A DNA stretch of 63,735 nt, the filler included, from Lenisia limosa (Eukaryota > Protista > Breviatea), in the NCBI GenBank assembly GCA_001655205.1. It is 13 parts of 13 records of this genome, joined end to end, with 100 filler letters (N's around TTAATTAATTAA, not from the genome) between each part and the next. Parts side by side here need not be neighbours in the genome. Positions count along the whole stretch, not along the records: positions 9,120 to 11,082 come from LPNZ01008637.1; 12 more parts are not named here. One strand, 5' to 3'. Made by a program: the position numbers and the translations under genes. Positions 2,981 to 56,767 of the stretch are shown one piece after another. A model generated the notes under the pieces. That model did no database searches. It worked only from the letters and a program-made list of their open reading frames with translations, and had not been told where the DNA came from. The first letter of the stretch is position 1. Each line of letters starts with the position of its first letter.

Positions 2981-4989
2981 CTTGAGGGAAAAGGGAAATG
3001 AGAAAAGTAAAGAGCATAGCAAAGACCAATCAAATCTGTCCTTCCGTCCCACAATATCATATCATTTGTCTTTGTTTCCTCATTTTTACCGAATTTCCTT
3101 CGTTCACCCNNNNNNNNNNNNNNNNNNNNNNNNNNNNNNNNNNNNNNNNNNNNNNNNNNNNNNNNNNNNNNNNNNNNNNNNNNNNNNNNNNNNNNNNNNN
3201 NNNNNNNNNNNNNNNNNNNNNNNNNNNNNNNNNNNNNNNNNNNNNNNNNNNNNNNNNNNNNNNNNNNNNNNNNNNNNNNNNNNNNNNNNNNNNNNNNNAT
3301 ATCCCTTTGTAACAACAATGTATTAACCCACCATTTAGAAGCCTCCAATTCGACGGAAGGTTCACACTTGGTTGTACAAAAGGGATCATGTCACACAATA
3401 ATGAAGAATCCCAAATTCCCCAAAATAGGAGCAGATACTTTTAATGCGCCATCAAGTAGTACAGCGCACGACTGCTGGGAAAAGGACAAGAAGCTTTGCT
3501 CTAACCACCGAATAGATGATGTAACGTGTGATCGTGTGATATATTGATATATAATATGAAAGGGGGGAGTGGTAGGGAAAGAAAGAAACAAGGCTTCGCT
3601 TCGTCCATGCTGCATTTTTATAAAAATGCACACTCCATGTATATTCTTATTTTTGAATGAAGCAGTGGAAGCAGAAGAGGGCCTCATCTGCCTCATCGTT
3701 TTCAGTGTCTCAGTGGATTGTTTTCCGCAGGTTTTCTGGGCTTTTTACAGCTTACATTGCAGTTTTTCAATTTTGCTTGAGTTTTTCAGATTCAGTTTTT
3801 GTCAATCCTACCTTCCCCTTCGAGCCTGCTGATTTCACTCCCTATCACAACTGCATTAAAGGCGTGAAGCAGAATTAAATATTACTTAACAATTGAAACG
3901 ACAAGATGTTATGAAGGACAGTGAAGTGACAGACAAGGTTTCTGGTCGTCACTTCATTTCTTAATAGGTGGGCGAGACAGAGTGCGTTGAGGGCCTTCAT
4001 TATGAAGGTTTTTTTCCCCCATTCATATTAAGGATTAGCAACACAATCAAACACGCTTCTTGTTGAGTTGCTTGACTTTTCCTCAGCGTCCCTCCGAATT
4101 CCCCATTAACCAGCATGAAACAGCGGAAGTTGAAAAAGGTCCCACCAGCCGGTATGCGGGGTAATGATATAGGAGTCATTTAAAGGATACTTTTGGTCAC
4201 TATACTAAGGGGGTGGGGCCTTGGAATTCCTTAATATTATTATTGGTATCTATCTCTATCATTTTTTTTTTTGGTATTTTTGGGGGAATGGATGCTGCTT
4301 TGTTTGGGGTTAGTTGTAAGTAATATTTGACCATGTTAAACCAATAGATGATGCTAAACCTAGATATGATGTAATACTAATTCAATATTCCATCGTTGTT
4401 GTATTTCTTGGTTTGTTGTTTGAGTTTACACGTATTCCAATTTTGTTGTGGTGATAACAGGGCTTTATAGAATATGATTGTCTTTTTTTGATTCACATCT
4501 GGTTTTTATTATTTTATTTATTTTTTGNNNNNNNNNNNNNNNNNNNNNNNNNNNNNNNNNNNNNNNNNNNNTTAATTAATTAANNNNNNNNNNNNNNNNN
4601 NNNNNNNNNNNNNNNNNNNNNNNNNNNTAAATAATATTTCTAGAGAAATATGTGGATATAGTTAAATATATAAGTAGCATGAGTAATATTAGTAGAATTA
4701 GTAGTATAAGGTTGTATCTGGCCGAAGCCGTCTACACCATCACGCTAATAAGCGATATTGGATTATAAAAAATTTAATCATTAGCGTTACAACTTTGTAC
4801 ACACAGCTTTATACGTGCCTTCCCAGCATACGGTAGAAGTAATATGAGCAATATAAGTCAGTAAAAAATATATCAGTAGCATAGTGTAAGTAGTATAATA
4901 GTAGTGTAAACAGCTTTTTTTTTTATTATAATTTTGGTATTATAAGTAATATCAATGTAGTAGAGAAAGCAAATAGTGTGAGTATCATC

Positions 4990-7900
4990 ATACCCCACAC
5001 ACCAAGGTAGTAAACAGGCTGTTCAAACAGGAAAATGAGCTGGCTGGCATCGTAAATGAATAGGAAGCTTGGCAGAACCGGAGTACCCGGGCACTGGCAT
5101 TCTCCTAAGGGGGGGGGGAGTAAAACGAAGGAAACTTCGATGAAGAATACTGGTGTAAAGGGACTAATCAAATACCGAATAATCTGCAACTCCAAACAAA
5201 AAAACAAGCAATAACAAACACGAGCAAACGAAGGAAAACTCGATGAAGAATATTGGTATAATTGGAATAAAGAAAATTACAGCCCAAAATCTTATAAAAA
5301 AAAGGGGGGATATTAGATTNNNNNNNNNNNNNNNNNNNNNNNNNNNNNNNNNNNNNNNNNNNNNNNNNNNNNNNNNNNNNNNNNNNNNNNNNNNNNNNNN
5401 NNNNNNNNNNNNNNNNNNNNNNNNNNNNNNNNNNNNNNNNNCTCCCTTTACTAAAACAAAACAAAAAACAACACTGTGGAAAAACTCCCCATCAAACAAC
5501 GGTCCACCATGAGTAATGCACCATATAACGGTTTGAAATGCATATTAACGCAATAATAATCAACAAATACGTATAGTGTATTCTCAAACATATCCCAAGC
5601 CATATCATATGCACTTTACTGAGGCTTCCCTACAGTCCCAAAAAAGACTGAATTTCTCGATAAATACTCGATAAATAACGATAGTTTACCGGTCCTTTTC
5701 GGACCGTAGGGAAGCCCAATTTACACCCCCCCCCCCCAACCATTANNNNNNNNNNNNNNNNNNNNNNNNNNNNNNNNNNNNNNNNNNNNNNNNNNNNNNN
5801 NNNNNNNNNNNNNNNNNNNNNNNNNNNNNNNNNNNNNNNNNNNNNNNNNNNNNNNNNNNNNNNNNNNNNNNNNNNNNNNNNNNNNNNNNNNNNNNNNNNN
5901 NNNNNNNNNNNNNNNNNNNNNNNNNNNNNNNNNNNNNNNNNNNNNNNTAAAAAAAAAAACAACTCTGTAACAAAAAAGGCAAACTCAACTGTGTAACAAA
6001 CATGTCAGTCTTAAGAGTGGACAACTAATCAAATCCGGCCTATTTCTTGATGATTGATACTCAAATTGATGAATATCTGATCTTACAATAAAAGAATGTT
6101 TGAGATTTACGAGTTTTAGTCCCCACATACCGAGAGAGAGTACTTGGAGATTTCGAACGATTTGAGCACGTATACTTCAGCAACGAATTGCTGGGGGTGT
6201 TAGCGAGGGGAGGGGCGTACAATTGGACAATTTCTGTAACAAAAATAAAAGCCGAAATCAACCCTGTTGGCTGACAACACAAGAGGGTAACCCCCCCCCN
6301 NNNNNNNNNNNNNNNNNNNNNNNNNNNNNNNNNNNNNNNNNNNNNNNNNCAACAGGGACAACTTCGGTGACAAAACCCATGCCTTCAACAGCGGCGGTGA
6401 TGGTGACGATCGTGTCGGGATCGGGGTCGGTGATGCTGAGGAACGAGAAAACCTTGTTGGTTGCAGTGTTGTCCAGGATTAGAGCCTGGTGAGTGAGTGG
6501 AATTTAAGAATTAATGTAATAAAATGGGTAAGATAATTAAAATGAACTGAACTGAACTGCCCATCACCAACCTTGGTTTGGACCACAGACGTGTTGTCAC
6601 GGGTGTTGGTCACAATTCCGGTGCGGATGACGGGGTCGTTTGTGCCAATTTCTACGGGGGGGGGGGNNNNNNNNNNNNNNNNNNNNNNNNAGATAGCATA
6701 TAAATAGGGCTTCGGCTCGAGAAATCCTCGAAAACTAACGATAAATTACCAGTTAAGTGAAGGCCAATATAATAGAGAAATATAGTAGTACTTTCAATAT
6801 ACTATACATTACAATATTTACATCAGATGATTATGTACAAATAGCGCTTCTCTTCGGTTCGACAAAAGACTAAATTTCTCGATAAATCCTCGAAAACTAT
6901 CGATATTTACCAGAATTTTTCGAGCCGAAGTGAAGCCCTATGTACAAAAACTTAACAAGAATGGATAGTAGCAGAGAAGTCTCCAATGAAAGGAGCGGAT
7001 ACGATGATTGCATTCATTTATTTGATCTTATGCTATCATTTCGTACAGTGACCGGGATAAACCAATTTTCCTTGGGAAATCATATCAAATCGGTCAAGAC
7101 TTATCCCAGTCACCGTACATAAAAGTCCTGACACGGAATTTGAGCTTTATCTTAAGTTATCGTATCAAGACTACAACAGCCTGCGTATGACTACATTAGG
7201 TCTATGTATGGTATTGATAATTACAATTTTAAAATGCATAAACAATAATCACTTACGGATAGTTACGGAGAAGTCTCCATTGAAATGATCAGATACGATG
7301 ATAACCATTTCTTTCAGCTCGAAGTTGAGCACGGCGGGGGACGACATGGACTATAAGGGTGAGATATTTGGGGAAAGTGAAAAACAATGCTGGGGTGAAA
7401 TAAGGGGAAATTTGTGAAAGGTGTGGTGGGTATCATAAACAAAAACAAAACAAAGGAAATTTCAATGATGAACGCGAAATAAAGGTACCCAATTGAGAAA
7501 TTTAAAGCAGGACTTGGTGTTTCCTTTGTTCCCTTCGTTTACCCCTCCAAAAGATATAAGCGGATATTAATAGCCCCCCCNNNNNNNNNNNNNNNNNNNN
7601 NNNNNNNNNNNNNNNNNNNNNNNNNNNNNNNNNNNNNNNNNNNNNNNNNNNNNNNNNNNNNNNNNNNNNNNNNNNNNNNNNNNNNNNNNNNNNNNNNNNN
7701 NNNNNNNNNNNNNNNNNNNNNNNNNNNNNNNNNNNNNNNNNNNNNNNNNNNNNNNNNNNNNNTACGTAACCCGGCTCACAAAACCCGCGCACAAGAATCC
7801 CAAGTCAATACGCCGTAGTGTAATACTACCCCCCCCCTACAGAGACAGACGGAGATACAGTGTGACTGCCGAGACGAATCGAAACGGCCTCGTGACTTGA

Positions 7901-8320
7901 GAAAACGGCCCAGGTTATGGGAGAGAATGATCCAAGAGATTTCCCCTCATTCTAAGGGGGCGGTGAGAGCGCTGATTGTTTTGACAATTGTCAAGTTTCA
8001 GATTGATTCAAAATTGAATATCCCCCCCCCCCCTCNNNNNNNNNNNNNNNNNNNNNNNNNNNNNNNNNNNNNNNNNNNNNNNNNNNNNNNNNNNNNNNNN
8101 NNNNNNNNNNNNNNNNNNNNNNNNNNNNNNNNNNNNNNNNNNACAATCTGAAGGGGTGAGGTGGGCACAGACAAGTAAAATGGGAATATTTATAAAACAA
8201 AAAGCCCAAAATCAACACTGTTGGCTTGTAATACACGAGGGTAAAATCAACAAAACAAACAAAATCGACTCCGCCCACCCGCACATAAACGCTATCATAT
8301 GATCTGGCTAATCTCATTGT
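4990..8320 (-). CDS. Fragmented multi-exon gene, probable secreted or surface protein with a beta-sandwich (cadherin/Ig-like) repeat
   Basis: Exons with canonical boundaries: EIGTNDPVIRTGIVTNTRDNTSVVQTK (about 6570-6652), ALILDNTATNKVFSFLSITDPDPDTIVTITAAVEGMGFVTEVVPV (6350-6487), GECQCPGTPVLP (about 5010-5104), SMSSPAVLNFELKEMVIIVSD (about 7270-7348). Interrupted by many N gaps. Confidence 0.4.
5105..5300. repeat. Dispersed repeat family D with a G/C-run end
   Basis: (G)nGTAAAACGAAGGAAATTTCGATGAAGAATATTGG..CCGAATAATCTG.AACTCCAAAC; copies at 1050-1111, 3060-3109, 5105-5300 (head duplicated at about 100-nt period), 50207-50340 and 53108-53160. Confidence 0.75.
7046..7115. mobile_element. Tc1/mariner-type MITE family E (70-85 bp)
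   Basis: TA|CAGTGACCGGGATAA..TTATCCCAGTCACCG|TA; further copies at about 9587-9663, about 10165-10226 and 56265-56346. Confidence 0.75.
8148..8278 (-). repeat. Dispersed intronic repeat family C (about 130 nt); this copy fills a whole predicted intron
   Basis: Consensus GCGGTGCTGCAGAAGCGACTGGCCTGGGCTTTGTTTGTTTTG..AACCCTCGTGTGTTGTCAGCCAACAGAGTTGATTTTGGGCTTTTTTGTTTCATAAATTTTCCAATTTTAC(C)n; about 18 copies in the window. Confidence 0.85.
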
Positions 8321-9252
8321 GTTTACTTTATATTTAGTAGAGTATCCCTATGTATTTATTTGTTTCCCTAAATTTTTAAAAATGCATATTATCGTGGGCA
8401 CGGAATGTGATAATTTGTTTATGGTTTCCATATCGATATAAATTTATTCGTTTCCCTAGATTTCTAATGCATATACCGATATTATTATTTCTCTTTTCAA
8501 AAAAAAAAAAAATCTTTTCACAATATCTTGGATGAAAAATCAGAAAGCAACAGTAGCAAATAAACCCATACCCTCGTCCCCTTACTATAATCATATAATG
8601 TTCTNNNNNNNNNNNNNNNNNNNNNNNNNNNNNNNNNNNNNNNNNNNNNNNNNNNNNNNNNNNNNNNNNNNNNNNNNNNNNNNNNNNNNNNNNNNNNNNN
8701 NNNNNNNNNNNNNNNNNNNNNNNNNNNNNNNNNNNNNNNNNNNNNNNNNNNNNNNNNNNNNTAATTTTAATCTAAAGGAAACTAGCTCAGACCATTAAAC
8801 GTTGTTTAGTGTTGCACAAGTAGAAGATCCTCACTTCGGTTCCAAAATGGACTGAATTTCTCGATGAATCCTCGAAAAATATCGATATTTAATCGGTATT
8901 TTTCGAACCGAAGTGAAGCCCAAGGAAGTCCCATAGATTGTAGCATTGTCAGTTAGCAAGAATGGCAGGTTCATTGGCGACGTTCAATTGTTATTGTCCC
9001 TCCTCCATTCTTCCACCTCNNNNNNNNNNNNNNNNNNNNNNNNNNNNNNNNNNNNNNNNNNNNTTAATTAATTAANNNNNNNNNNNNNNNNNNNNNNNNN
9101 NNNNNNNNNNNNNNNNNNNTAACCTATGATATAAGGCTCGAGAGGAATGCAGTTTTACAAACCTGGACTACTCCTCTTGCAATATTTTAACACTTTCTAT
9201 AACACGACGGCGTCCCTTAGCAATGTTTAATTTTGTCCAATCACCTTTCTCA

Positions 9253-10313
9253 GGCCATGGTGAGGCATCGGAGGTGGAGCTTCAAGGAAACCTCTATTTT
9301 GGCGATGCGGATTCCCCAGCTCAAGATGCTAGTTGGGAGGGGTATTGCATGTACAGCGACCGGGATAAGTCTTGACTGATTTGCAATGTGATATACAGCG
9401 ACCGGGATAAGNNNNNNNNNNNNNNNNNNNNNNNNNNNNNNNNNNNNNNNNNNNNNNNNNNNNNNNNNNNNNNNNNNNNNNNNNNNNNNNNNNNNNNNNN
9501 NNNNNNNNNNNNNNNNNNNNNNNNNNNNNNNNNNNNNNNNNNNNNNNNNNNNNNNNNNNNACAGTGACCGGGATAAGTGTGATATACAGTGACCGGGATA
9601 AGTCTTGACCGATTTGCTATGGGATTTACCAAGGAAAATAGGTCAAGGCTTATCCTGCCACTGTCTATATCATATTGATATATTACTGCAGTATTGTTAG
9701 TCTTGTGTGTGTAGGGTAGTTGTGATATTATTTAAACAAGTCTGTTGATTTATGCCAAAAAAACACAAGTTCAAAAATATTTTAGCTTCAGTCAGATTCT
9801 ATTATCCAAAATCTCTTATAAGCGTGGTGGTGGACGGCTTCGGCCAGATACTCCATATTTTTATTGTCTATTTCTGTCACAACATCTCTAATTATTCCAG
9901 TGGTTCCTGTTGGTGGTGTAACTGCTTGGATCCCGGTTCCGGCCAACGCCGAGCCCCCACAAGGTATTATTATTTATTTATTATTTGCTTTTTTGGGGTT
10001 TTTTTTTTTTTGNNNNNNNNNNNNNNNNNNNNNNNNNNNNNNNNNNNNNNNNNNNNNNNNNNNNNNNNNNNNNNNNNNNNNNNNNNNNNNNNNNNNNNNN
10101 NNNNNNNNNNNNNNNNNNNNNNNNNNNNNNNNTGATTATTTCACTAGTGGATATGGGTCGACATTCTGACCGGGTAAGTCTTAACAGATTTGCGATATGA
10201 TTTCCGCCAAGACTATCCCGGCTACTTATCACAACGCTTCGAGCTCTCCTGCAATTTTCTCACACCTTAGGCTGGGTCATTTGTGACGGCCGCACCATTG
10301 AAAATGAAAAAAG
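9253..10313 (+). CDS. Partial gene containing a phage tail-collar-like domain
   Basis: Exons about 9253-9331, 9901-9963 and 10271-10313 splice in phase to ..YFGDADSPAQDAMVPVGGVTAWIPVPANAEPPQGWVICDGRTIENEK, matching the tail-collar pattern PvGti.afag..aP.GWl.CDG. Confidence 0.7.
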
Positions 10314-12984
10314 GTTTGCCCTGAGATTCCCCAGTAAATAGTGGGATTCCTTTTATCAGAATCCCAAGCTATTACAACCTTTTTATAAGAATCCCATGTT
10401 AATGCTCCGAAATACAGAGAGCCTTATGGTTCCTAAAAGATAGGAATTCCAATGGATATTTTACTGGTCTGAAATTCTCCAATTTCACCCCCCCCCCCCC
10501 CCNNNNNNNNNNNNNNNNNNNNNNNNNNNNNNNNNNNNNNNNNNNNNNNNNNNNNNNNNNNNNNNNNNNNNNNNNNNNNNNNNNNNNNNNNNNNNNNNNN
10601 NNNNNNNNNNNNNNNNNNNNNNNNNNNNNNNNNNNNNNNNNNNNNNNNNNNNNNNNNNNNNNNNNNNNNNNNNNNNNNNNNNNNNNNNNNNNNNNNNNNN
10701 NNNNNNNNNNNNNNNNNNNNNNNNNNNNNNNNNNNNNNNNNNNNNNNNNNNNNNNNNNNNNNNNNNNNNNNNNNNNNNNNNNNNNNNNNNNNNNNNNNNN
10801 NNNNNNNNNNNNNNNNNNNNNNNNNNNNNNNNNNNNNNNNNNNNNNNNNNNNNGGATTTATCGAGCAAATCAGTCTTTTTTAACCAAGTGAAGCCCGAGG
10901 GATAAGTAGTTTTGATTGGTTTGGGGGGGTAGGCCTACCTTCACTTCGGTTCTTAAAAAGACTGAATTTCTTGATAAATCCTCGAAAACTATCGATATAT
11001 TCCGACTTTTTCGAACTGAAGTGAAACCCTAGTGGGGGGGTGTATTTATTCTTTGTTGAGTTATATTATCCCCTTGTAGTTGNNNNNNNNNNNNNNNNNN
11101 NNNNNNNNNNNNNNNNNNNNNNNNNNTTAATTAATTAANNNNNNNNNNNNNNNNNNNNNNNNNNNNNNNNNNNNNNNNNNNNCGTTTTCTCAACCATCTA
11201 GCCATCGTCGTGGTGGTTGCGTGTATATTACTGTTTTGTGCAATAGGTCTAATTTATTTCTACTCTAGTTAGCTGTTAATGGCGGTTACAGGGAGACAAT
11301 GCTGAGGGGAATAAACGTAGGAGGAATATAGTGTTCTTACTTTTATAATATATGCTATATAATTATATATATATGATCATATTATATCGATATACTAGTT
11401 ATATAGTATATGATACTATATCATATGTAGTATCTTCAAGAATAACACGTTAGTTTTCGAACAGGTAGCCCATAATTTATGAATCAAGAGGAATAGGGAC
11501 AAAAATGAACACTTACACAAATCTTACTATTTTTGTGATTTTTAAAGGAAGTATTTCAGCAACCAAAAAAGGCCCCAAAAAATGTCACCTTTTCTGGCAC
11601 TTTGACCCCCCATATTATAGAAAAATCATACATTACCCGGGTAAACAGAGTCAAAAAAGAAACAGGCACATTAGCTCCGAGCGTTCACTCGGTACGGTTG
11701 GGGGCAGTGAGCGGGTCGCCCCATTTGGTCCAGGCAATGTCACGCCCGACAGATTTCACTAAAAGCAATTAGAGGCGCTGAACCAGAATGAAACTGCCGA
11801 ATGTAAGGATTCCTGGATTTTTAGTATTGTTTGCGCTCTGCTGAACAAGAATATAATTAGGCAAACGAAGGGGAATTTTGAGGTTAGTAAGATATCTTCA
11901 ACTCGAGCAATTATCTTTTATTGTTCAACCACATCAAAAGCAGACCTAAAAAAACAGCACGCTCAAACACTGACTGTTATTAAAAACGAAACTATTAAAT
12001 AAACACTATAAAACCTGTCAGAGCATGATTAAGAAGAAAACTGACAAAACTATTTAAAAAAAACAGTTACGCATTCTTTCTGATTCCCTGTACCCCCACC
12101 TCTCATTTTGAGGCAGTTGCGGCAGATCTGACGATCATCGTCAATGCAAGGTTTGTTCTCTGAATTTGTTACTTGGGCTTCGGTTCGAAAAACACCAGTA
12201 AAATATCGATAATTTTCGAAGATTTATCGAGAAATTCTGTCTTTTTTTTAAACCGAAGTGAAGAGTGAAGCCTTAATTGTTAATAATCCACAAATGTGAA
12301 GTCAATAACCACTTCCCATCATCGCATAACACTTCCAGAAAGTTAGTAAGCACAAGCCACACCACATAAAGCTGGTATATTTAAATACCTATCCATAAAT
12401 ATCAATATTGTAACGGTCTTTTTTGGACCGCGGACGCCCTAATCAGAAAGTTGGTAAAACCCCCACCGTAAAGCTGGTACAACGGGCGGTATTCCATAGC
12501 AGTGAGGAGTGGCATAAGAACATTAGCGCCTCTTAGGAGACTGCCTTCACGGCCGGNNNNNNNNNNNNNNNNNNNNNNNNNNNNNNNNNNNNNNNNNNNN
12601 TTAATTAATTAANNNNNNNNNNNNNNNNNNNNNNNNNNNNNNNNNNNNNNNNNNNNTGCTAATCGTCATTTTAGGAGCCCGGTAAGGGAGGCCCACATGA
12701 CAGGGGTCTACTCTGGGCTTTCTTGCTACTCAGGTTAGTGCTGGTTATACGCGTGTATCTTGCTTCATATGCATGAGCTTTCTCTATATTTAATAATTAT
12801 ATCTTGGGCTTCCCTATGGTCCCAAAAAGACCATCAAAATATCGATATTTATCGAGAATTTATCGAGAAATTAGGTCTTTTTTTGGGTCCGTAGGGAAGC
12901 CCTAATTATCTCTAGTTCAAATACATGTACTTGTCACTTTTAAAGAGTTTCAGCAGAAATATTTTAACAGTAATGTCAACAAAA

Positions 12985-14700
12985 CTACCAAAAGAAGATT
13001 AAAAAAATAAACAAACGACCCCCCCCACGTTTCTTTTCCTTCGGCGTTTTAGGAGCCCGGGGCGCCCTCGGGGCCTTTTCCTTTGCCTCCTGCCGGCGGC
13101 GCGGCTTCTTCTTTGGAAGAGCATCGGGAATCTCCTCATCTGAACCAGGTTCGGGAAGTTCCGACAGGGCAGGAGGCTCGGCTGCCTTGCCACGTTTACG
13201 CTGCCGGGTTTGATATTTCGAAGTTGGCGGCGACGCGGGCATGGCGTCGGGAGCCCGTGCCGGCGTCATGTCGNNNNNNNNNNNNNNNNNNNNNNNNNNN
13301 NNNNNNNNNNNNNNNNGGAGGCTCAGTTTGAGAGTATCATCCTCAAGGGCTTTGGCTCGGATTTCAAGCCGTTCCGTCATCTTAATTTCGGCTTCCTTGG
13401 CCTTCTCCACGGCATCCAAGAGGTGCTGGTCCAGCTCGGCCTGGGTCATTTGGGCCGGGTCCTTGAGGGGTGCGGATGATGATGACGTCACGGCGGGCGG
13501 GATGGGTTGTTCAGTTCGGTTTCGTTCTTCGAAATCCTTCTCGTCCATTGCGAGTTGATAGTCTTCTTCGTTTTCGTCGTCTAGGTCATCTTCCTTGAAC
13601 TCCGAGCCGTCAGTGATCATGGCGTCGTCAAAGATCGGCTCTTCAGCCATCACAATCGTTTCTTGTGGCGCGAGGCTATGTGGCACTGCTTGTCGAAGGG
13701 CCGTGTCTTCTTCCTTCTTTTCCTCTTCTTCTTTCTTCTCCACTACTTCCTTCTTTTCCTCTTCTTCTTCCTTCTTTTCCTCTACTTCCTTCTTCTCAAC
13801 TTCTTCCATCTCAGCTTCTTCTTTTTTCTCCTCTTTCTCAACTTCTTCCTTCTTCTCTTCCTTCTCAACTCCTTCCTTCTCAGCTTCTTCCATCTTCTCT
13901 TCCTTTTCAGCTTCTTCCTTCTTCTCTTCCTTCTCAGTTTCTTCCTTCTTCTCTTCCTTCTCAGCTTCTTCCTTTTTCTTCTCTTCTTCCATATCCTTCT
14001 TCTCAACTTCTTCCTTCTTCTTCCCTTCTTCCATATCCATCTTCTCTTTTTCCTTCTTATCAACTTCCTCTTTTTTCTCTTCTTCCTTCTTCTTCACTTC
14101 TTCCTTCTTCTTCTTTTCCACTTCCTTCTCCTTCCCCTCAATGGGACTCACAACCGCGCTGGTGTTCAGAAGTTCAACTGGCGGGATGTCAAGAATTCCA
14201 CCGACCGGCGGCGGCGGCGGAGACAGAAGTGCCGAGCCGGGGAGGGACAACTTCGGGGTACTCAGGGGCGGCGGCGAGCGGAATGAGATTGGCGATAGGT
14301 TGGCGATGGGGGGCTGAGGGATGGCGGCTTGCGCTTTCGGGGGAATGAGGCTGGGGGAGGCGACTTCGGCGACTTTTACGGGTTTTTTCTTGGGGGTGTG
14401 AAGCGCAGGGGCCACGAGAATCGGAATGGGTTGCACGGGAGTTGTGGGCGGCATGACCGTAACCGACGGAAGCGGCATCGGAACGGCGGTTATCGCTTCC
14501 GGTGCCGGCGCGGGCTTAGTTTTTCGAGGCCTCCCGCGGGTTTTGGAACCTGGGGTGGCCGGCCCGGTGATTTTGGGAGTTTTTGGTTTTGGTGCAGCGT
14601 GGGGAGGAGGAGGAGATTTGATCTGCCTAGGTTTTGGGGGGAGGTCAAGAGCAGGGCAGATGCTGCGCTTTTTCGAGGACTTGTTTGATTTACTGAGAAG
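12985..14700 (-). CDS. Large exon of a low-complexity Pro-rich / Glu-Lys-rich protein with an AT-hook-like motif; 5' end lost at contig end
   Basis: The 497-aa ORF stays open upstream to the gap at 14701 (..PGSKTRGRPRKTKPAP..). It has a long EK-repeat block and a probable donor (AAAC|gtgggg) near 13030. Confidence 0.65.
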   Translation of the reverse strand, partial: LLSKSNKSSKKRSICPALDLPPKPRQIKSPPPPHAAPKPKTPKITGPATPGSKTRGRPRKTKPAPAPEAITAVPMPLPSVTVMPPTTPVQPIPILVAPALHTPKKKPVKVAEVASPSLIPPKAQAAIPQPPIANLSPISFRSPPPLSTPKLSLPGSALLSPPPPPVGGILDIPPVELLNTSAVVSPIEGKEKEVEKKKKEEVKKKEEEKKEEVDKKEKEKMDMEEGKKKEEVEKKDMEEEKKKEEAEKEEKKEETEKEEKKEEAEKEEKMEEAEKEGVEKEEKKEEVEKEEKKEEAEMEEVEKKEVEEKKEEEEEKKEVVEKKEEEEKKEEDTALRQAVPHSLAPQETIVMAEEPIFDDAMITDGSEFKEDDLDDENEEDYQLAMDEKDFEERNRTEQPIPPAVTSSSSAPLKDPAQMTQAELDQHLLDAVEKAKEAEIKMTERLEIRAKALEDDTLKLSLXXXXXXXXXXXXXXXDMTPARAPDAMPASPPTSKYQTRQRKRGKAAEPPALSELPEPGSDEEIPDALPKKKPRRRQEAKEKAPRAPRAPKTPKEKKRGGGRLFIFLIFFW

Positions 14701-14801: not shown

Positions 14802-17170
14802 AAGAGTAGTGAACTTCTCAGGCTGAAGACGTGAATCAGAGGCATCGTTATATTGTACAGTATTAGTATAATGCATATCGATATGTACAGTATAAGAGTA
14901 ATATATCATATCTATATGTAGAGATGAGGAATAAAACAAGGTTGTATCTGGCCGAAGCCATCCACACCATCACTTTGTATCACTTTGATGGGGGATTTTG
15001 GATAATATATTAATTCAATCATTTGCCTTACAACTCTGTCCGCACAATCTGAAATATTGTACATGTACCGATAATATCGATATTTTACCAGTTTTTTCCG
15101 GATCGTTAGGAAGCTCCAAGACCCACCCACGCTGATTAAGGGAATCTCAACAACCTCTCTGAGCTTCTCGATTTGGTCCTTCATGCCTCCAACATCAGCG
15201 TAAGTCACATCAGGCTTTTCTGCATCGATTACATTTTTGAAAATGGGAAATGTTGTCATATTACAATATGCACGAATTTGGTACTCTCAATATTGGAAAG
15301 TATTCAAAGTTGTTTCATTGCATGGAATTACACAGAAAAGAAGTACTAATCAAACGCTGATTTGAACTCCAAAGCTTCATACACTTCAAACCCAGAGTTT
15401 GTATTGGATATTTATTCTTGTCCTTCAAAAAAATCAACGCCTTGACCAACCTTCAACCTCCATCAGCGACACGGTAGGATCGATCTTAGGGGGAAGAGGG
15501 ATTTGGATGGTGTATTTACTCCTTTCAACTCTGCCAAACAATGAGAAAAAGAAACTGTATCAACTTGCGAAACAGTGAAAAAAAGAAACAGTTCCAACTC
15601 TGCAAAACAATGAGAGAAAGATGGAAGTTATGAGATTTCCAGAAATCCACAGCCACTCCAAGGTGAATTGTTTCCTTGATTAAAAAGGTTCATCATATAT
15701 TCAAAATGAGCGCTCACTGATGAAGGAAAGCCCCACATATGACCAATCCCCATGTAAATTGATCCACCCATCCCTCATACCCGACGCGCATGCCGTCTTC
15801 AACATCTGTGGAGGCAACCTTTGGGGTCAGTGTTTTTTTTGTTTGAGGAGATCGCTGGGATCCCAGAGATATTGGGAGCAAGTCCGTGTTAAGAGAGGCG
15901 ATAAAGAAAGGTATAGGTGTGCTGTTGGTATATGGTGTCCCTATGTATTAGCTATCAAAAAAGGAAAAAAAAAAACGAATTGGGATACGGAAGGCAGAAT
16001 TGGCGAAGTGCAAATGGGTACTTCTCTTTATACGAATATATATATATAAAACAAGATGGTAACTAGCAGAAGACGTCCCCACCATCCCCCCCCCCTCCCT
16101 CTGAAATCACTACCTGTTTCAAAGAACAGTTGTTTTCAAAGAATAAATAATCCACTACTGTTTTTCCAGAAACCAATGAATATTATAAGAAACTATTATT
16201 CCACCATACCTGTTTGCCGAGGCCTACGACGTATTTTGCCTCCTGCCGCAAGTTGATGACGAACTTTGGAGAGTCTGTGTCGGTGTCTATGGACTGCACG
16301 ATTCGGGCAACCTGAGCGGTTAGTTAACACTTAACACTACGGACCAACTTAGGAATTTCTTCAGATTTGCAAATATTATACAAGATAACTTATTTTATCT
16401 ATACATTCTGGCTCCCCAAAAAGCACTCGGTACAATTCTGTGATCGATTTTCCGGAAGGAAATCCGATTTTGGTCATAGCTTACCATTGTCACTGTATGC
16501 AGGAATGGGAAATAAAAGGAAGTAATCTATGGTTCAATCCTCTCATTGAGAAGTACATTACTATGTTTTCAATCATGTGCTATAAATAGGGCTTGGAAAA
16601 AAAAAAGAAGACCAAATTTGTCGATGAATCCTCGAATATATCGATACACTGCTTATCACCATGTTTCGTTCTCAATTCGGTTCAAAGAGCCAGTTTAGTG
16701 AACCTTTATCGAAACGTCCTTGCCCATATTGATATCTTATTATTTATGGTTTAGCCAGCTAATGGGGGTGCAATATTATGTCTAGGAACAAAAAAAAAAA
16801 AACAGCGAGATAGTCCTACAAACCTGGAGAGGTCCTTCCTTTGGCATTGTTTGCTGGTCACGGTTCAGATCCCATTGTGATGGTGGCGCAAGTCCTGTAT
16901 CACTATCCTTGAGATCTAAACAGATTAGAGAGGACTGGGAAAAGGCTTCCCTGACTGGTAATGGTCTTGACTCTCTTTCGTAACTCCTCAACTTCCACTT
17001 CCCTCTCGGCAATGGATGCTGTATAAGGCCCATGTCCCTGTATTCAGTCAGAACTACCAATTTCCTTGAAGGATTTTGTGGAAACAACTTACATAGTACT
17101 TCAAAAGCCTGATCTCTCCTTCTGATAATGCTTTAAGGGGAGCATCATCCTTATCCTTCTCCATAGCCAT
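14802..17170 (-). CDS. PSMC2: 26S proteasome regulatory subunit 7 (RPT1), 5' part; truncated at contig linker
   Basis: Exons: [122 protein letters not shown]. Confidence 0.95.
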
Positions 17171-20015: not shown

Positions 20016-22308
20016 TTAGAGCTCGTGACGAGGGATGTCTTCGATGTTCATGGAGGGAAGGTCAGCAAGGGCCTTGCGGATGATTTCAACGCAGTCGTCA
20101 AGCTGCTCGGCGGTGATGACGAGGGGAGGAGCAAGACGGATGATGTGATCGTGAGTGGGCTTGCAGAGGAGGCCGCGGTCAGCGAGGAGGAGGCAAAGAT
20201 GCCAGGCTAAGAGGGTGAGCAATTGGGAGACGGAGGAGGAAAGGACGAGAGAAGACATGAGATGATGCATACCCTTCTTCTTGCCGGTGGGGTCCATGGC
20301 CTTGTCGTCAATGACGATGGCGTTGAGGAGACCCTTACCGCGAACCTCAGTAATGTACTTGCACTTCATGTCAACAAGAGCCTTGAGCAGTTAACATCTG
20401 TACAGAGTGTTGTTGGCGAATATTTAACATGATAAATGTTGTTGTCAACCATGGAACAAGCCTCACCTTGCGGAAGCGTTGGCCAAGCTCGTCAGCGCGT
20501 TCGGCAAGCTTCTTGTCCTTAAGCTCTTTGAGGGCGGCCATGGCGACTGCGCAGGCAACGGGGTTACCACCGTAGGTGCTGGAGAGTGATGATTGTCGGA
20601 TTAATGGGGTGGACATGTTGGAGATTGGGAGGAAGCTTACGATCCGTGGCTCCCGGGGGCAAAGCAGAGCATAATCTCCTTGTTGGCGAGGACGGCGGAG
20701 ACGGGGTAGACACCACCAGAAAGGGCCTTGCCGAGGATGAGGACGTCAGGCTTGACACCTGGCAAGGTCAGGATTGTCGTGAGGAAATAGCGTCTGAGAT
20801 GGAGAGGAGGAAATAGCGTCTGAGATGGAGTGCTTACCGTCGTGGTCGACAGCGAGCATACGGCCAGTACGGGCAAGACCGGACTGGATCTCGTCGGCAA
20901 TGAAGAGGCAGTTGTGCTCCTCGCAAAGCTTCTTACAGGCGGTCAGGTAGCCGTCGTCGGGGCAGACAATACCGGCCTCACCCTGGGGTGTGAGAAAGGG
21001 GCTGAACTATGTTGAATTCTTTGATTACAGTAGAGGGGGGAAGAGAGGGTCAAAAGGACCTCAAGGGGTTAACGGAAGGATCAAGAAAAAAACAAGAAAA
21101 GAAGTGATCCAAAAGGTATCTCAGCATGAACAATAAGAATATCGTGAAATGCGTTAAAAGCAATAAATAAAGCTTCTGAGAGGACAGGGAAGAGGTGGAG
21201 AGGGGAAAGTCACCAAAAGTCAAGCCAACCTGGATGGGCTCGCAAAGGAAAGCAGCAACCTTCTTGCCGTGAGACTCAAGGGCGGTCTTGAGGGCCTCAA
21301 CGTTGTTGTACTCGACGGAATGGCCTTCGAGTCCGGGAACCTGGAAAAGTAAGTCAATATCACTTGGAAAACAATCGAAAGACAACGGAAAGACTGAGTC
21401 AAGTCCATAACTGTCAAAACTCGGACTAATAGTAGGAAAAAATTAACGCGCAACAAGGCCTAATTTTGAGAGCATAGGCCTTCAGAAAGCAATCGCGGCG
21501 GTGTAAAAGGGCCCAGCTTACGAAAGGACCGAAACCTTCACGGCAGTCGGGGTCTTGGGACATAGAGATGATAGCAGTGGAGCGACCATGGAAGTTGCCC
21601 TAAATGAGTCAACGGGAGCAGATTTCGGAGTAATAGACTTTGATTGGTGGGCGTTCGAACCTTGCAAGAGATAATGATAGCCTCGTTGGCGGGAATACCC
21701 TTCTTCTGGTAGCCCCAGGCGCGAGCGAGCTTGATAGCAGTCTCAACAGCCTCGGCACCACTAAAATGTGTCAGAATTTGAGGAATTGAAATGATAGTAG
21801 GAATCAAGCTCGAGCTCTATTTTTAATCTCCTCTTACGAGTTCATGGGGAGAACCATGTCGAAGTTGAAGAACTACAAGAGTGAAAAGACATCTCGAAAG
21901 TTCCAGGAATGAAATGTTTGGAAAACGGGAAAATCGTCGTCATTACTCACCTCAGTGATGTACTTGGCAAATTCACCGAGCTTGTCGTTGTAGAAGGCAC
22001 GAGAGGAAAGAGTGAGCTTCTTGGACTGTTCAATCATAGCATCAATGATAGCGGGACAGCAATGACCTTGGTTGACGGCACTAGAAAGGTTAGAAGGTCA
22101 AAGCTAGCTGGAAACCAACCTGTAAGCAGAAAGGAAGTCATAGTACTCCTTGCCTTCGGGGTCCTTAACCATGCAGCCATCAGCAGAAGCAAAGACCACC
22201 TAAATTGTGAGATAACCGTCAAAAAAAATCGGGGAAATTGCTTACAGGGAGGGGATGGTAGTTGTGAGCTGAGTGGTCGTGCTCGCGCTTGATGCAATCC
22301 ATAGACAT
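20016..22308 (-). CDS. OAT: Ornithine aminotransferase (class III PLP aminotransferase), about 12 exons, complete
   Basis: [110 protein letters not shown] (PLP Lys), [25 protein letters not shown]; stop TAA at 20016. Confidence 0.97.
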
Positions 22309-22870
22309 GATGATAATTTCACAGATGAAGGATTTTTTCGGAAAATTTGACTCCTTTTTATACTAACAGGGTTCCCCGGGGTACTTACGATATTAGAATG
22401 ACGTAATATCATAAAAACCCCATCTGAACCCGCCTGCGTCTTACTACCTCCGTAAGACGCAAGCCTCTGGGGGATCAGATGGTAAAAACCACGAAGTTAC
22501 CGTTACCCAGACCACAGACATCCTCTCATTCTTCCTTCCCAACTCCTTCCCTTGCTTTCTTGTAACTTTAAATTGCAGCTTTCTATTTGTTTTCTTCATT
22601 TTCACAACCTTTTCACCATCTCTCACCCATCTCTAACATCTAACGTGTATCCGCGTGAACACAAATACAAAAGCAAAACGACATGAATAATAAGAACGAA
22701 ACGTCAGACACCTTAAACATTAGTCACTGCGTTTGATTTGCAGCTTCGGTATCAGAGAGAGAACTACTGTGGTCAGTAAGGAAACAAAGCATAGGATAAA
22801 AAGACCAAGGGTAACGACCACGGGCTACCCACTTAGAAATTCGATCAGGCCAAGTTGAAGCCGGTTTCAG

Positions 22871-25800
22871 TCACATGGGGTTGAGAAGGGGGGCGATTCG
22901 ATCTCATGGGCGACCTTGAAAAGCTTGATGGAGAAAATGGCGTATTTTGTGAAGGCGGTCTCTTCCTGTTTGGGTCAATTCTGAACTTTGGCAGAGGAGG
23001 GGCTTTAAATTTTTCAATTATTATTCAGGAATTCCCTTTGGATAATAATTCCCACTCACGTGAGGTTGAGATCTCGGAAGCTTTCTTCAAGGCTCATGGA
23101 ATGTGAGTTCAAGGAATTACCGAAGGAAGGAGAAATGAAGGAACCTGGAAGAGATCCAGATTCTTCGGATTCTAAAATGTCAGCTATTTGTTGGGAAGCC
23201 TCTCAAAGCAGGTTATCAAAGGGAGCACAGCGAACCATTATCAGCAACCCAGTCGTAATAGATCGGAGTGATCTGGTCACCGGATTCGGGAAGGTGGTAA
23301 GGGTCGAAGGGGAAGAAGCTGGCAACCATCTTCGAGGCTGCAACCCTGAAGCTGTCAGAATACTGATCNNNNNNNNNNNNNNNNNNNNNNNNNNNNNNNN
23401 NNNNNNNNNNNNNNNNNNNNNNNNNNNNNNNNNNNNNNNNNNNNNNNNNNNNNNNNNNNNNNNNNNNNNNNNNNNNNNNNNNNNNNCCTTGCTCCTTGGT
23501 CTCCTTCCAGACGTTTTCTCCATCAGGAATAGAGCTACAGGCATAAGCTGTCTGGTTGTTTTCTCTTTAAACCGCACAGATTATCGCCCAAACACAATAT
23601 TATCTCCCCCCCCCCCCCCNNNNNNNNNNNNNNNNNNNNNNNNNNNNNNNNNNNNNNNNNNNNNNNNNNNNNNNNNNNNNNNNNNNNNNNNNNNNNNNNN
23701 NNNNNNNNGGAATAATATTAGAGCTTCGCTTTCGGTTACAAAAGACTGAACAAATATCGATACTTATCAAGGAATTATCGAATTCCTTCTTTTTTGGAAC
23801 CGAAAGTGACCCTCCAAATAATATGCCTTTGCTTCAACATCAGATCGTTCACTCAAGTGCCTACATGAAGAGGAAGGAATTTGGAGTTGAGAATCCTGCC
23901 TATGCCAAGAGCGGAAAACGCAGCAACCGCATCGGACTCGAAGATTTGAGGGTATTTGAAGCAGATGACGTAGCAGAGGCCTACGGTAATTATCACCAGG
24001 TTGAAGCCTTGGATGAAACCACGGGCAGATGTGAAAATGTTAATAGGGAAATACTCCACTGCGAGCGCCACTCAAACTAACCTTGAATAGCAGTGTAGAG
24101 AAGGGTATGGTCTTGGGGCTTTTTAGGGGGAAGGGCGATGTGGGCTTTTTCGTCCAAATAAGAGTGAATGAACTCGGCAATGTCTTCAACAAAGGAGCGA
24201 AGAACCTCTGAAAATGGTCAAACTGCCACGAAAGGATAACATTGTAGTTTTACAAAACTGTGTAAGAACATGAAGAAATATGATATATTAAGAGTTTTTT
24301 TGCAGCAGGTCTCTATTGGAACTAGGACCACAAAGATTTTAAGAGGCAAGTCATCTAACCGTCAGATAGGAAGCGTGACCGCGCCATATACGATGCCATG
24401 TATGCAATGGAGGCGAGACGCAGCGGGAGACCCTGGTCTTTTGCCCGCATTTTGAAGGAGCAGAACCCAAGGAAGTACTATAGGGTGACGAAGCGATATA
24501 TAGCAATGAGAAATAAGGTTGGATCTGGCCGAAGCCAGTGACGAAGCGATATAGCAATTATGAGGTAGTGGTGTGATTGGTCATAAGGGCCCATAGCGTT
24601 CCCAAAAAATAATATTGGGCTTTTGAAAAGTATTAAACGTAGTCATATTTAGCCAGTAATACCTGGGGGTAGTCGGGGTGAAAACTTGAAGCGTAGAAGA
24701 CCAGGAACTGGACGTATTTCGACTGGTAAGTTGGGAGTAGATTGCGCTCAAACGTCTGAAAATGTGAGGAGTATGACAAAGGATAGATGAGAAAATAATG
24801 CAGTATCCTAAATAGAACCAAAAAAAATAATACCTGCAACCTCGTAAGCCTCTTTAGGCTTAATAAAGCGTAATGTGATGTATAATATTCATAAAAAGCT
24901 CAATAATAAAAAAGAAAAAAGAATTCCTTCATACCACAAGGAGAACGGAGTAAACTTCATTGCAAATATCAGGGCTAACTTTGGCGATGTCTGAGAGTGT
25001 CAATGAGCAAAAAGCAGGCTGACTCTAGAAAACAGAGATATGCAGCAGGAGTATTCATGTAGTAGCTAGAAACACTGAATTCGTCACCCTCGATACACTT
25101 ATCAAAATTTCACCAAATCCAAAGCCCAAAGTATACTTTGCAATGGGGCACTGAGCCTGTGTTTAGCGAATCAGAAAACTCAAAATCCCACTGTACAACC
25201 CTACTCAGGGTTTCACATGGACCCCAACTTCAAACTGACATGATGAAACGACCCTCACTTTCTCATTCTCTACCCCGAAAAGATGGTTACAAACCGTTTT
25301 GCTTATTATCTACTGATCATAGGAATAACATAACCTAATCAAGTAGGATAATTTTCGCACTCGAACTATTTCTTTTTAAAGAGTGCCATGAATGATACCA
25401 CGCTCTCTCAACTTGAGAGAGAATCCCAACAAAGGCTTTAACACGTACCCCGGTCTTATCTCACGAGGGCAACGTCTGACACGCTTGGGTCCATATAAAC
25501 CCTCAGGTTAAAGGTTCCCCATCGACACCATCCGACTGTTGATGAACTATTGCTAACTCTCTGGTCGAATGTGATCCTCAATTGCAGCCAAGGGCCTAAC
25601 AATCTCCACAAATAGAATTGCAATAAAATCACGAGTATTCTCGGTTACTTGATTCTAGTGGATAAGACGACGGACAAGCTGACATTTAACAGCGAAAAAA
25701 AAGAGAAATATGACCACAACTTAGCAAATATTACAGATCGATAAGGTTGAAACAAGAATGTTGTTATGATAACTCCTTTTTGGAGCAAATCAGATTGCCT

Positions 25801-27973: not shown

Positions 27974-30250
27974 ATGAGTGATACCGAACAGAATTATGAT
28001 GAGCCTGTGAGTTGGGAGAGATTGGTTGATTGATAGATATAATATAGATTGTCTTTTCTGTATTGCTGTCTTGATATATTTGCATAATTGTGTCTTTTAG
28101 ACGACATTGAACTTCACGGCTGTATTTCATTTTTTTTATAGATTGCTCAAGAGCCTACTTACTCTGACGAAGAGCCTGCTATGAAGTCTGACATCGAGGA
28201 TGAACCTCTTGCCACTGAGGAAATCCAAGTTGAAGACGATGTTCTTTCCGAAAAGGAGGAAGACCACGTCATGTCAGAGAAGGAAGACGAGGAGCCGTAT
28301 AAATCCGACAACGAAGCTGTTGTTGATGATGAGCCCATCGAGTATGCCGATGAGCCTCTTGATGATGAACCTGCCCTTTCTGAGAAGGAAGACATCGCTT
28401 CCAAGTCTGATGACGATCTTGTTGAAGATGATGTTGTTGAGGATGATGTTAAGGAGGACACCTATGCTGATGAAGAGCTGAAGGCAGAGTCTGAGGACGA
28501 CAAGGACGAGCCCCTTTCTGATGGTGAAAAAGAAGCCGCAGTGTCCAACCTCTCTGATGTTGAGAAGGAAGAAGATTTCCCGGAGAAACATGGTGATCAC
28601 ATCTCTGAAGGTGACCTTGACGACTACCAGCCTGCCGATGAGACTGAAGAGTCTGCTGAACGTGTTGCTGAGCTCGAAGATGAGCTCCGCCGTACCAAGA
28701 AGGTTGGAAGGACCAATCAGATTTGTTCATGACCCCGTTCTATGTTTCTAAAGTGCCCCATTTCTGCCAGCTTGGGGTTGTCTTGGTTGAATAATGCTAA
28801 TTGGAGGACAAATTTAATGATACTATTTTGACAAAGAGCTGAAGGCCAGACTCCTTTAATCATCCTGCTGTTATTTTGTTTCAATTTCGTTTCACGAGAT
28901 TTCANNNNNNNNNNNNNNNNNNNNNNNNNNNNNNNNNNNNNNNNNNNNNNNNNNNNNNNNNNNNNNNNNNNNNNNNNNNNNNNNNNNNNNNNNNNNNNNN
29001 NNNNNNNNNNNNNNNNNNNNNNNNNNNNNNNNNNNNNNNNNNNNNNNNNNNNNNNNNNNNNNNNNNNNNNNNNNNNNNNNNNNNNNTCAGATGGAAATTG
29101 ACGAGCAAGCCTCTATGATCGAACAACTCCAGGAGCAGTGGGTTTGGATGCTGTATCTTTGTATTTTGTTTCTAGTCTGATATGTCCACAGCTGTAAGGT
29201 GAATATTTGGGTGAATTAATATTACTTTGATCCAATATCTCTAAGAAGCATGATGTGTGGACGACTTCGGCCAGATACAACCTTGTTTTTATTTTTCTCT
29301 TTTCTATCTATAATGATATTCTTGTGGCTTAAAATTTCATGTTTTTTTTTAAAAGTAAATATCCATATAGTGTGGATAACGACTGCAGGTCCATCAACAT
29401 GTCTGGAATTGAGCCTGACACAGCCATGATGGATGAGGACCGCAAACAAGTGCGCTAGGGGGGGGGGGGGNNNNNNNNNNNNNNNNNNNNNNNNNNNNNN
29501 NNNNNNNNNNNNNNNNNNNNNNNNNNNNNNNNNNNNNNNNNNNNNNNNNNNNNNNNNNCTCATTTCGATATTATTTCTGGTCTTTTGGACCAACGTAAAG
29601 GCAGACTAGCCCAATAACACAGTAGGTTGAAGCCGAACGTGACGAGCTTTCTGAGAAGCTTGCTGCCATGGAAGCCGAGCTCGATCGCTCCAAGGTCATG
29701 AGCGGTGGGAGGGGGAGATATAATTATTTTGAGTGGTGCAATTGCTTCTTAATTTACTCTCATTATTGTTGATGGTTCTCAACGTGTCACTCCGAAAACA
29801 TGTTCAACTCAATACGGTTGTTTGACCACTCAGGCGCCTCCCCCGACGAACGTGTCAACCTTCTTGAGCAGAGCCTTGCCGAAGTTGAGGAGGAGAAGGA
29901 TGCACTCGAGCGCCAGCGCAACAAGCTCAAGCGCCAAGTCGAGGAGGCTGAAAGTGGGTGGTCTTTGGCTCCGGAGGAGGAGGCGTGGCAAGAAGTCCCC
30001 CTCCTCTAAATTATCCAATTTTACTCTATTTTGAAAGAATGTTTGGAGATTGCTTCACACATTAGGCCGCATTGAGGAAGAAGAGGAAGAGAAGAACACT
30101 GCTCTAACCGAAGCACAGCGCCTTGCTTCCGAGGTTCAGGTATGGGGTTAATAAATGCTTCCTGCAAGACGCTGGTATCAAATTGCAGTTGTGTTGTTTT
30201 CTTTTCAACAGTTAAGACGGAAGAAGCTCTTACCGCAGAGAATATTACGA
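27974..30250 (+). CDS. Acidic N-terminal / coiled-coil protein of unknown identity; 3' end uncertain
   Basis: ATG at 27974 (MSDTEQNYDEP|gt), a long D/E-rich exon 28142-28702, then heptad-like exons (VEAERDELSEKLAAMEAELDRSK; RVNLLEQSLAEVEEEKDALERQRNKLKRQVEE). Confidence 0.7.
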
Positions 30251-54865: not shown

Positions 54866-56767
54866 GGTCGCAGACGAGCCCGGACTTAAGGCCACTCAAA
54901 AAGAAGACATTGTTGTGCAACCCCCAAGGTAGCTTTGGAAAGAAGAAAATGCGTTATATTAAAAATAGGGCAGTGAGGATTCCGGTGTAAAGGCGTTACA
55001 TTAAAACTTGGGGAGGGAAGACGGTATACGGCGTTTGGAGGAGTTTTGCAGCCATACAAAATATACAGGGAGGAGGGTATTTGTATTCATCAAGGCGTCT
55101 GTATATTCTGTATGGCTGCAAAACTCCCCTAAACACCGTACTCCGTCTTCCCTAGTTTTAATTATATACCCCCCCCCCCCNNNNNNNNNNNNNNNNNNCC
55201 CTATGGGAAGTGGTGCTGCAAAAGTGACTAGCCTAGGCTTTGTTGGTTTTGTTTTCAACCCGTGTGTGTTTCCCAAATGCTTGCCAAATAGTGTTGATTC
55301 TGGGCATATATACAAGTTTCCGAAATTTTACAATTTTACACCTGGCCTGGGTTTTGTTTGTTTTGTTGTTCTCAACCCTTGTGTGTTGTCAGCCAACAGA
55401 GTTGNNNNNNNNNNNNNNNNNNNNNNNNNNNNNNNNNNNNNNNNNNNNNNNNNNNNNNNNNNNNNNNNNNNNNNNNNNNNNNNNNNTCGAGGATTTATCG
55501 AGAAATTCTGTCTTTTTTGGGACCGTAGGGAAGTCCCAGGTGTAGCTTGAGTGTGGTGATGATTGTCGTGGTTTATGATGATGCCCAAGAAACAAAAGAT
55601 GCATCAAGTCGAAACAAAACAATTATTTTGGCAGAGAGGTTTAAACTTACCACATTCCAGCCATGATGAAGCCCACGAAACGTCCGAGGAAACTTCCAGT
55701 GAAACTACTGAGGAAGCGAAGGCCGGTGATGAGAATGGCGAAAAAACCAAGATCCCCGAGGAGGAGCCTAAGACTGCTTTCCAGAAGGCAAAGGTACGAA
55801 TGGGCTTTGTTTGTTTTGGTGTTATCAACCCTCGTGTGTTGTTAGCCAATAGAGTTGTTTTGGGCTTTTTTTTNNNNNNNNNNNNNNNNNNNNNNNNNNN
55901 NNNNNNNNNNNNNNNNNNNNNNNNNNNNNNNNNNNNNNNNNNNNNNNNNNNNNNNNNNNNNNNNNNNNNNNNNNNNNNNNNNNNNNNNNNNNNNCATACG
56001 ACCGGTTCCAAGTCCGCAAGCAAGTCAGCGACCAAGGCGAGTTGTCACGGTGGGGGAGGGTGTTCGGTATGGTGAAGGATGATAGTTTATCTTGTGGAGG
56101 GTGGTGAAAGCATGACAGAGGGATGCGTGTCTTGTGGAGGGTGGTGATGATTGTTATGGTGGGGGAATATTTGCATCAATACGTCGCAGTATGCTATTTA
56201 CACATATTATGATATTCTCTATACATACCAGGCTATCGCGGTGGGGTCTGAATAAATTAAAATATAGTGACCGGGAGAAGTCTTGCTTGATCAATTTTCC
56301 TTGGGAAATCATATGGCAAATCGGTCAAGACTTTTCCCGGTCACCATATATCTATCTTCGAAGCGTGATTGTGGGTTGCTTCGGCCAGACACACCCTTGT
56401 TTTATTCCTCATATCGAAGATATACTAACAAGTTTGTTGGCCCATTTCCACAAGTGATATGAATTGTGCCATTGATCTGATCATAACACGAGGGTTCATC
56501 CCGAGTGGAGCAGAATTTTGTGGAGACTTGTAATTCCCTTTGAATATAACCCAAAAAGTGATCTAATAGTAGTTCTCATCTGTGAAAATGACCCATTAAA
56601 AAATGTCGTAACATCCCCAGATTCCGCGCTCGTGTCTACGCAGTCACCGGCAAAATGGACGAGGAATACCAAAAAGACCTCGAAAAGGCTGCTGAGAAGG
56701 AAGCGGCAGAGAAGCAGAAGAAGGAGGAGGAGAAGGCTCGGATTCTGGAGAAGAGAAACGCCAAGTA
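54866..56767 (+). CDS. 3' part of a charged (E/K-rich) protein of unknown family
   Basis: Exons HDEAHETSEETSSETTEEAK..KTAFQKAK and TGKMDEEYQKDLEKAAEKEAAEKQKKEEEKARILEKRNAK*. Confidence 0.5.
55014..55154. repeat. Long imperfect inverted repeat (about 54-bp arms, about 31-nt spacer)
   Basis: gggaagacggtatacggcgtttggaggagttttgcagccatacaaaatatacag pairs with ctgtatattctgtatggctgcaaaactcccctaaacaccgtactccgtcttccc, with about 6 mismatches. Confidence 0.9.

Follow-up and report, generated by a model that had tools for sequence, protein, structure and literature searches.

Introduction

The prototype of the tail-collar domain of phages (PF07484) is T4 gp12 (PDB entries 1OCY, 1PDI and 5IV5). In T4 gp37 and in the proteins of the virophage DSLV2 the collar is reported to be a trimeric stabilizing base, the receptor being bound by a variable head (PMC12724248). 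Collar proteins have also been reported in non-phage bacterial operons (PMC2938197). Small collar-plus-tip proteins that operate around eukaryotic cells, reported as trimers, are described for virophages: OLV18/19 (PMC3671162) and the DSLV2 trio (PMC12724248). These are virion proteins encoded in viral genomes by three paralogues in a row. Among eukaryotes, the Plasmodiophora brassicae protein Pb4_109755 (homologue CEO97090.1), a secreted candidate effector of 191 residues, bears the label Phage Tail Collar Domain (PMC9530463). Two further systems reuse phage fibre domains in cells: MYRF/MrfA for trimerization in eukaryotes (PMC3742443) and the MAT fibres of Bdellovibrio for prey recognition (PMC10769870). 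Both rest on β-helix or S74 chaperone parts and not on the collar, and the word 'collar' is absent from the main text of the MAT paper. The 'tail collar' of crabs is a sperm structure and was set aside.

The original prediction placed a collar-like domain, split by spliceosomal introns, in a 63,735-nucleotide stretch of Lenisia limosa DNA (the window), and regarded the domain as belonging to phages, bacteria and some giant viruses. The latter restriction is contradicted by the annotation of the Plasmodiophora protein. That protein and the present one belong to a similar size class and are likened by label only, as PMC9530463 gives a table row, and its passages on the protein take up neither domain nor introns. 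This label is, as far as we found, all that was already known, and the description of a spliced collar gene appears to be new: none was found in the literature searched (main texts without supplements, few subscription journals).

The locus shares with T4 gp12 the P-x-G...W...W-x-x-C-x-G core and the downstream P-D. It differs in a longer loop after the first Trp, in a short SP[FY]NG insert that replaces the long helical insert of gp12 and in being a spliced nuclear gene, and its SP[FY]NG relatives fall below the Pfam cut-off. The three-gene context of the virophage collars is not seen here. 'SP[FY]NG type' is a label coined in this work; no published family was found under it in the literature searched. 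These proteins give the best profile for the window peptide and have the 7-residue spacing and the downstream motif in common with it, with a best identity to any relative of 46% over 39 columns. Their genes, however, are intronless and their N-terminal parts are unlike exon 1.

Materials and methods

The window consists of eukaryotic assembly sequence rich in N gaps, with 12 linkers of 100 bases (44 N + TTAATTAATTAA + 44 N), for example at 4528–4627, 9020–9119 and 11083–11182. The gene lies on a single piece between linkers (9120–11082, about 2 kb), so that genes elsewhere in the window are unproven neighbours. Two sequencing runs of one study were used: X1, polyA RNA labelled metatranscriptomic, and X2, DNA (71 million letters). 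The high intron density, the small size of the DNA run and the labelling of the polyA library fit a protist host. The evidence for splicing comes from the one RNA run. Of its 180,449 contigs, 11 aligned to the studied stretch, one of which is the collar contig.

The Pfam model PF07484 was applied to single exons, and the spliced peptide was scored with our own profiles. For the Pfam scan of the window, 105 of the 117 N-free frames of at least 80 residues were used; the 12 omitted were mostly low-complexity or antisense.

Results and discussion

Transcript and reading frame

A single RNA contig (record 1; 1,023 nt, depth 10, + strand) joins three exons with 0 mismatches and 0 gaps. Its positions 241–318, 319–379 and 380–424, contiguous in the record, correspond to genomic positions 9254–9331, 9901–9961 and 10269–10313, and every aligned piece of the contig is at least 31 letters long. 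The second joint is ambiguous by AG; shifted, the exons become 9254–9331, 9901–9963 and 10271–10313, each of them preceded by AG and followed by GT (Table 1). DNA contigs cross 9593–10012 and 10133–10501 unspliced, including the intron borders of exons 2 and 3, and hence the introns are present in the DNA. Exon 1 has no DNA contig cover in X2, an absence that carries no weight either way. The introns are thus of the GT–AG type, removed in polyA RNA yet present in DNA, which is what marks a resident spliceosomal host gene and agrees with the spliceosomal nature predicted for both. As a rough control, the upstream 4.4-kb piece (4628–9019) has no RNA cover at 99% likeness, so the RNA library is not simply DNA there; the alignments listed on that piece (11 records) are short repeat matches, and the collar contig is absent among them.

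Once the exons are joined, a single frame out of six is open; it holds VPVGGVTAW (exon 2) and WVICDG (exon 3). In unspliced DNA these two halves of the collar motif fall in different frames, so that the motif becomes readable only after in-phase splicing, as had been proposed. The alternative frame GSCWWCNCLDPG, which transcripts might have used instead, has stop codons in exons 1 and 3. The visible coding part amounts to 184 nt after splicing and encodes a 60-residue peptide, to which the loose ends of the RNA add about ten codons on each side. Four introns border or split these 184 nt. The GC content is 0.47–0.62 in the exons versus 0.37–0.40 in the introns.

The RNA contig extends 240 nt 5' of 9254 and 599 nt 3' of 10313, beyond the piece, which implies at least two further exons. 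With about 840 nt of transcript outside the 2-kb piece, the leader, the tip or head and the stop codon lie out of view. A motif search of the readable window for the adjacent exons was negative. Comparison of exon 1 with 232 upstream segments of relatives showed no similarity (50 of 100 shuffles did equally well); a fibre shaft was ruled out for this exon, as no shaft similarity was found among those segments.

Table 1. Features of the collar gene, its intron repeats and Pfam matches elsewhere in the window.
Feature	Position	Strand	Basis or remark
Upstream intron, 3' part	9120–9253	+	Acceptor AG 9252–9253; 240 RNA nt before 9254 lie off-piece
Exon 1, 78 nt, linker ahead of collar domain	9254–9331	+	RNA 241–318, 0 mismatches
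Intron 1, 569 nt including 149 N, GT...AG	9332–9900	+	RNA and DNA contigs
Partial tandem copies of left end of 9582–9668 element, intron 1	9345–9411		Direct repeat families D1/D2
MITE-like element, about 85 bp, terminal inverted repeats, intron 1	9582–9668		Copies 7044–7120, 56262–56352
Second dispersed host repeat, intron 1	9797–9865		Copies 4714–4770, 14930–14969, 29230–29293, 59692–59786, others
Exon 2, 63 nt, first half of collar core (P-x-G...W...P)	9901–9963	+	RNA 319–379
Intron 2, 307 nt including 120 N, GT...AG	9964–10270	+	RNA and DNA contigs
Decayed copy of 9582–9668 family, intron 2	about 10167–10221		Repeat comparison
Exon 3, 43 nt, W-x-x-C-D-G and 7-residue spacer	10271–10313	+	RNA 380–424
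Downstream intron, donor GT 10314–10315, into 351-N gap	10314–11082	+	599 RNA nt after 10313 off-piece
Third inverted-repeat family, about 93 bp, downstream intron	10939–11031		About 15 other places in window
RRN3 exon	24636–24899	-	Pfam scan
Weak FANCI match	31992–32270	+	Pfam scan
Fe/Mn superoxide dismutase exon	58923–59204	+	Pfam scan

Repeats in the introns

The introns had been predicted to carry host MITEs of two families. One of these stands: the element at 9582–9668 is short and non-coding, has terminal inverted repeats and occurs in many copies, as a MITE should, and by eye it has TA on both sides, a candidate target-site duplication. For the second repeat (9797–9865) a terminal inverted repeat was sought and none was found, so that the MITE label does not extend to it. 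The third family is very abundant, with a summed DNA contig depth of 1–2 × 10^5. Summed contig depth, which is not a copy number, is about 10^5 over the intron repeats compared with 17–29 over exons 2 and 3. This contrast marks the intron repeats as abundant host repeats, and the exon depth gives no sign of near-identical paralogues. Since the introns are filled with host repeats, contamination by a bacterium is excluded. Taken as a whole, the locus is very likely a resident gene of an intron-rich eukaryote, spliced and transcribed.

Collar homology of the spliced peptide

The residues of the core motif P-x-G...W...W-x-x-C-[DN]-G are present and aligned in the spliced peptide, and none of the core residues (P, G, W, W, C, G and P-D) is missing. 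By eye, the 30-nt loose end of the RNA after exon 3 is in frame and fits SP[FY]NG...P[DN]L, breaking off after P-D plus the initial two bases of a Leu/Phe codon. Exon 3 together with this loose end conforms, again by eye, to the pattern C-[DN]-G, 7 residues, S-P-[FY]-[NH]-G, 3 residues, P-[DN]-[LF]. The 7-residue spacing occurs in 188 of 395 collected domains, the seeds of which had been chosen by that pattern.

A profile of these 395 SP[FY]NG domains scored the spliced peptide at 31.5 bits, against 7.8 for the best shuffle, and none of 2,000 shuffles reached the score of the peptide. With a profile from 11 viral rows alone the peptide scored 28.9 bits; the top score was 12.7 among 2,463 fragments of the window and 6.7 among 1,000 shuffles. 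Among the 2,463 six-frame fragments of the window, the frame of exon 3 alone rose above noise in the profile search. Exon 2, whose motif lay outside the pattern used to seed the family, scored 6.6 bits by itself, and 1 of 2,000 shuffles of it scored as high. On these scores, homology to the collar family is firm; as judged from the sequence, the window peptide is almost certainly a collar homologue. A profile of the viral SP[FY]NG proteins, which included two window exon rows, also matched T4 gp12 (1OCY, E 5.9e-5) and the short tail fibre 9CUY (E 5.2e-7).

Assignment to a subfamily is less direct. The short NGTPDL-type collar profile (23 rows) gave 27.1 bits (best shuffle 7.9) and the long phage-type profile (34 rows) 18.4 bits (best shuffle 10.0). 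On the window peptide the short type scores nearly as high as the SP[FY]NG type; choosing between the subfamilies therefore relies on the loose end of the RNA.

Formal membership of PF07484 does not follow from the single exons. Exon 3 alone reached 12.2 bits (E 0.18; cut-off 24), and the other four of the five pieces gave no match. The predicted collar-type domain in a eukaryotic gene was thus upheld as a spliced and transcribed coding region that matches our own collar profile significantly, but not as a formal Pfam hit. The SP[FY]NG subfamily itself behaves in this way: 13 of 14 viral proteins of the type match PF07484 at 14–22 bits with none passing 24, and in a second sample none of four passed (range of the closest subfamily, 14–23 bits). 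All sampled members of the short type (4/4) and of the long phage type (4/4) are over the cut-off. None of the three exons matched PHROGs singly, and a tblastn search of phages with exon 3 gave just matches to cyanophage tail fibres at E values of 2–6. Exon 3, a weak query, yielded six candidates for the protein itself in a public collection, none at E ≤ 10. P0044, whose contig is likewise 1,023 nt long, proved to be another protein.

Relatives and their distribution

The SP[FY]NG pattern was found at 15 viral loci and at 74 loci in prokaryotic genomes (L001–L089). The prokaryotic matches, many of them in uncultured bacteria, include Leptospiraceae, with many copies in one genome bin, as well as Bacteroidota, Planctomycetota, Acidobacteriota, SAR324, Myxococcales, Bacteriovoracaceae and one archaeon. 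All relatives found (for example P0199, P0186, P0079 and P0026) are intronless and prokaryotic or phage-borne. In a scan of 59 proteins from 15 loci, the neighbours at viral loci match tail, endolysin and replication families, and those at five genome loci mostly have no match or match non-structural families. By a crude window test, a hydrophobic N-terminal stretch is present in 40 of 71 genome-borne relatives versus 0 of 14 viral ones. The two relatives closest by identity, P0199 and P0186, both start with a hydrophobic leader. The stretch between the core Trp and the C-terminus has a median length of 120 residues in the family (n = 215), which is compatible with the 599 nt left in the RNA contig.

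Nine of the prokaryotic loci encode giant proteins of 1,800–3,300 residues (L017, L023, L030, L047, L052 and L080, all in one Leptospiraceae bin, and L061, L073 and L083). They contain several tandem SP[FY]NG collars, and some of their ends are S74-chaperone-like by eye. Small leader-bearing paralogues accompany these giant proteins. A viral contig of 4.4 kb carries three collar genes of the short type in tandem (L092–L094), which recall the virophage trio.

No eukaryote-named protein was present among the matches listed (best 120 of 1,251, 120 of 202 and 150 of 2,935); with mostly unnamed rows and with queries weighted towards prokaryotes, absence cannot be read from this. A search of metagenomes by DNA pattern gave no close relatives and one distant locus (L090), and the exon 2–3 pattern gave no close relatives in viral contigs. 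Atlas look-ups using the relatives, and not the window protein, returned Collar clusters that held no taxa other than viral and bacterial ones. A quick tree (127 rows by 40 columns) left 85 of 124 inner branches open and the window row without a supported placing; on this basis bacterium, phage and eukaryotic virus are indistinguishable as donor.

Origin and probable role

We favour, with roughly an even chance of its being correct, an old import from a bacterium or phage that still serves as a gp12-like trimeric fibre tip binding surfaces outside the cell. The collar gene would be an ancient acquisition, with a bacterium or its phage as the source, that was later fully intronized; four introns around 184 coding nt together with an intact core suggest long residence under selection. 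Because the collar is the trimeric base in gp37 and the DSLV2 proteins and the length of the family fits the transcript, a small trimeric tip has probably been retained in the host protein. By family likeness, the collar would clamp three chains, and the unseen C-terminal 100–200 residues or so would form a variable binding head and a return strand. More than half of the cellular relatives have a hydrophobic N-terminus, and for this reason the unseen N-terminal part (at most 80 codons in the contig) may carry an export leader or an anchor. The odds of an extracellular binding role are about even. What is bound would be the surface of bacteria or some other surface, with prey or partner bacteria as the most economical guess.

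A transcribed relic, a contaminant or a chance motif would be in keeping with the failure of any single exon to reach PF07484 and of the exon-3 query to find the protein in the public collection. Precise GT–AG splicing that leaves one frame open, and core residues intact at a score that shuffles fail to match, make this extremely improbable. A virophage or giant-virus gene, either used by now for defence against viruses, as decoy or receptor, or else an endogenous viral gene that has not yet decayed, is distinctly improbable. Collar proteins are indeed known in virophages and giant viruses (OLV18/19, PMC3671162; DSLV2 trio, PMC12724248), and the short type, derived from viral contigs, scores well on the peptide and groups with it in the tree, if weakly (support 60, with a flag for a long-branch meeting). 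Such an origin has to be squared, however, with introns that are filled with host repeats, with the SP[FY]NG insert in the downstream motif, and with viral carriers of SP[FY]NG that, where neighbours were matched, sit among tailed-phage genes. Nor did the 105 scanned frames of the window contain any viral Pfam family, although only 9120–11082 is the gene's own piece.

The role could also be internal: in a host protein inside the cell or tethered to a membrane, the collar would have been kept only as a trimerization clamp. MYRF sets a precedent for a phage fibre domain reused in eukaryotic cells (PMC3742443), exon 1 resembles no prokaryotic shaft and no leader is seen in the visible part. The upstream codons, however, leave little room for a large partner domain unless the contig is 5'-truncated, and most cellular relatives look exported; we consider such a clamp unlikely. 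We would give a similarly low weight to an old, overlooked eukaryotic collar family, shared with Plasmodiophora and other protists, in which the import is older than the lineage and the role is a general secreted or matrix one. The secreted Plasmodiophora protein (PMC9530463) speaks for it, as does the age implied by a high intron density; the lack of eukaryote names among the matches listed counts against it weakly, the rows being mostly unnamed and the profiles prokaryote-weighted.

If the import indeed gave rise to an exposed fibre tip, bacteria-eating protists might display collar tips as intron-rich surface receptors that recognize prey or partner bacteria, much as Bdellovibrio does with its MAT fibres; this is a tentative proposal, and we would not call it probable. 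How protists recognize the bacteria that they feed on or harbour is poorly understood in molecular terms. A concrete and expressible candidate for such binding is offered by this small gene, which is expressed, rich in introns and based on the receptor-binding tip of a phage. It is likewise a clear example of a structural module, prokaryotic or phage in source, turned into a normal nuclear gene.

Other features of the window

The scanned frames matched just four families: class-III aminotransferase, RRN3, FANCI (weakly) and Fe/Mn superoxide dismutase. A long open frame at 12988–14700 (-) encodes a Pro-rich and Glu/Lys-rich low-complexity protein without a Pfam match. At 6350–6660 (-), short Thr/Asp-rich coding-like stretches, which have no RNA cover in the RNA run, resemble exons of Ig- or cadherin-type repeats by eye. 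The class-III aminotransferase gene at 20019–22320 (-) has PF00202 in five frames and is ornithine-aminotransferase-like by eye; it is intron-rich and illustrates the high intron density of the host.
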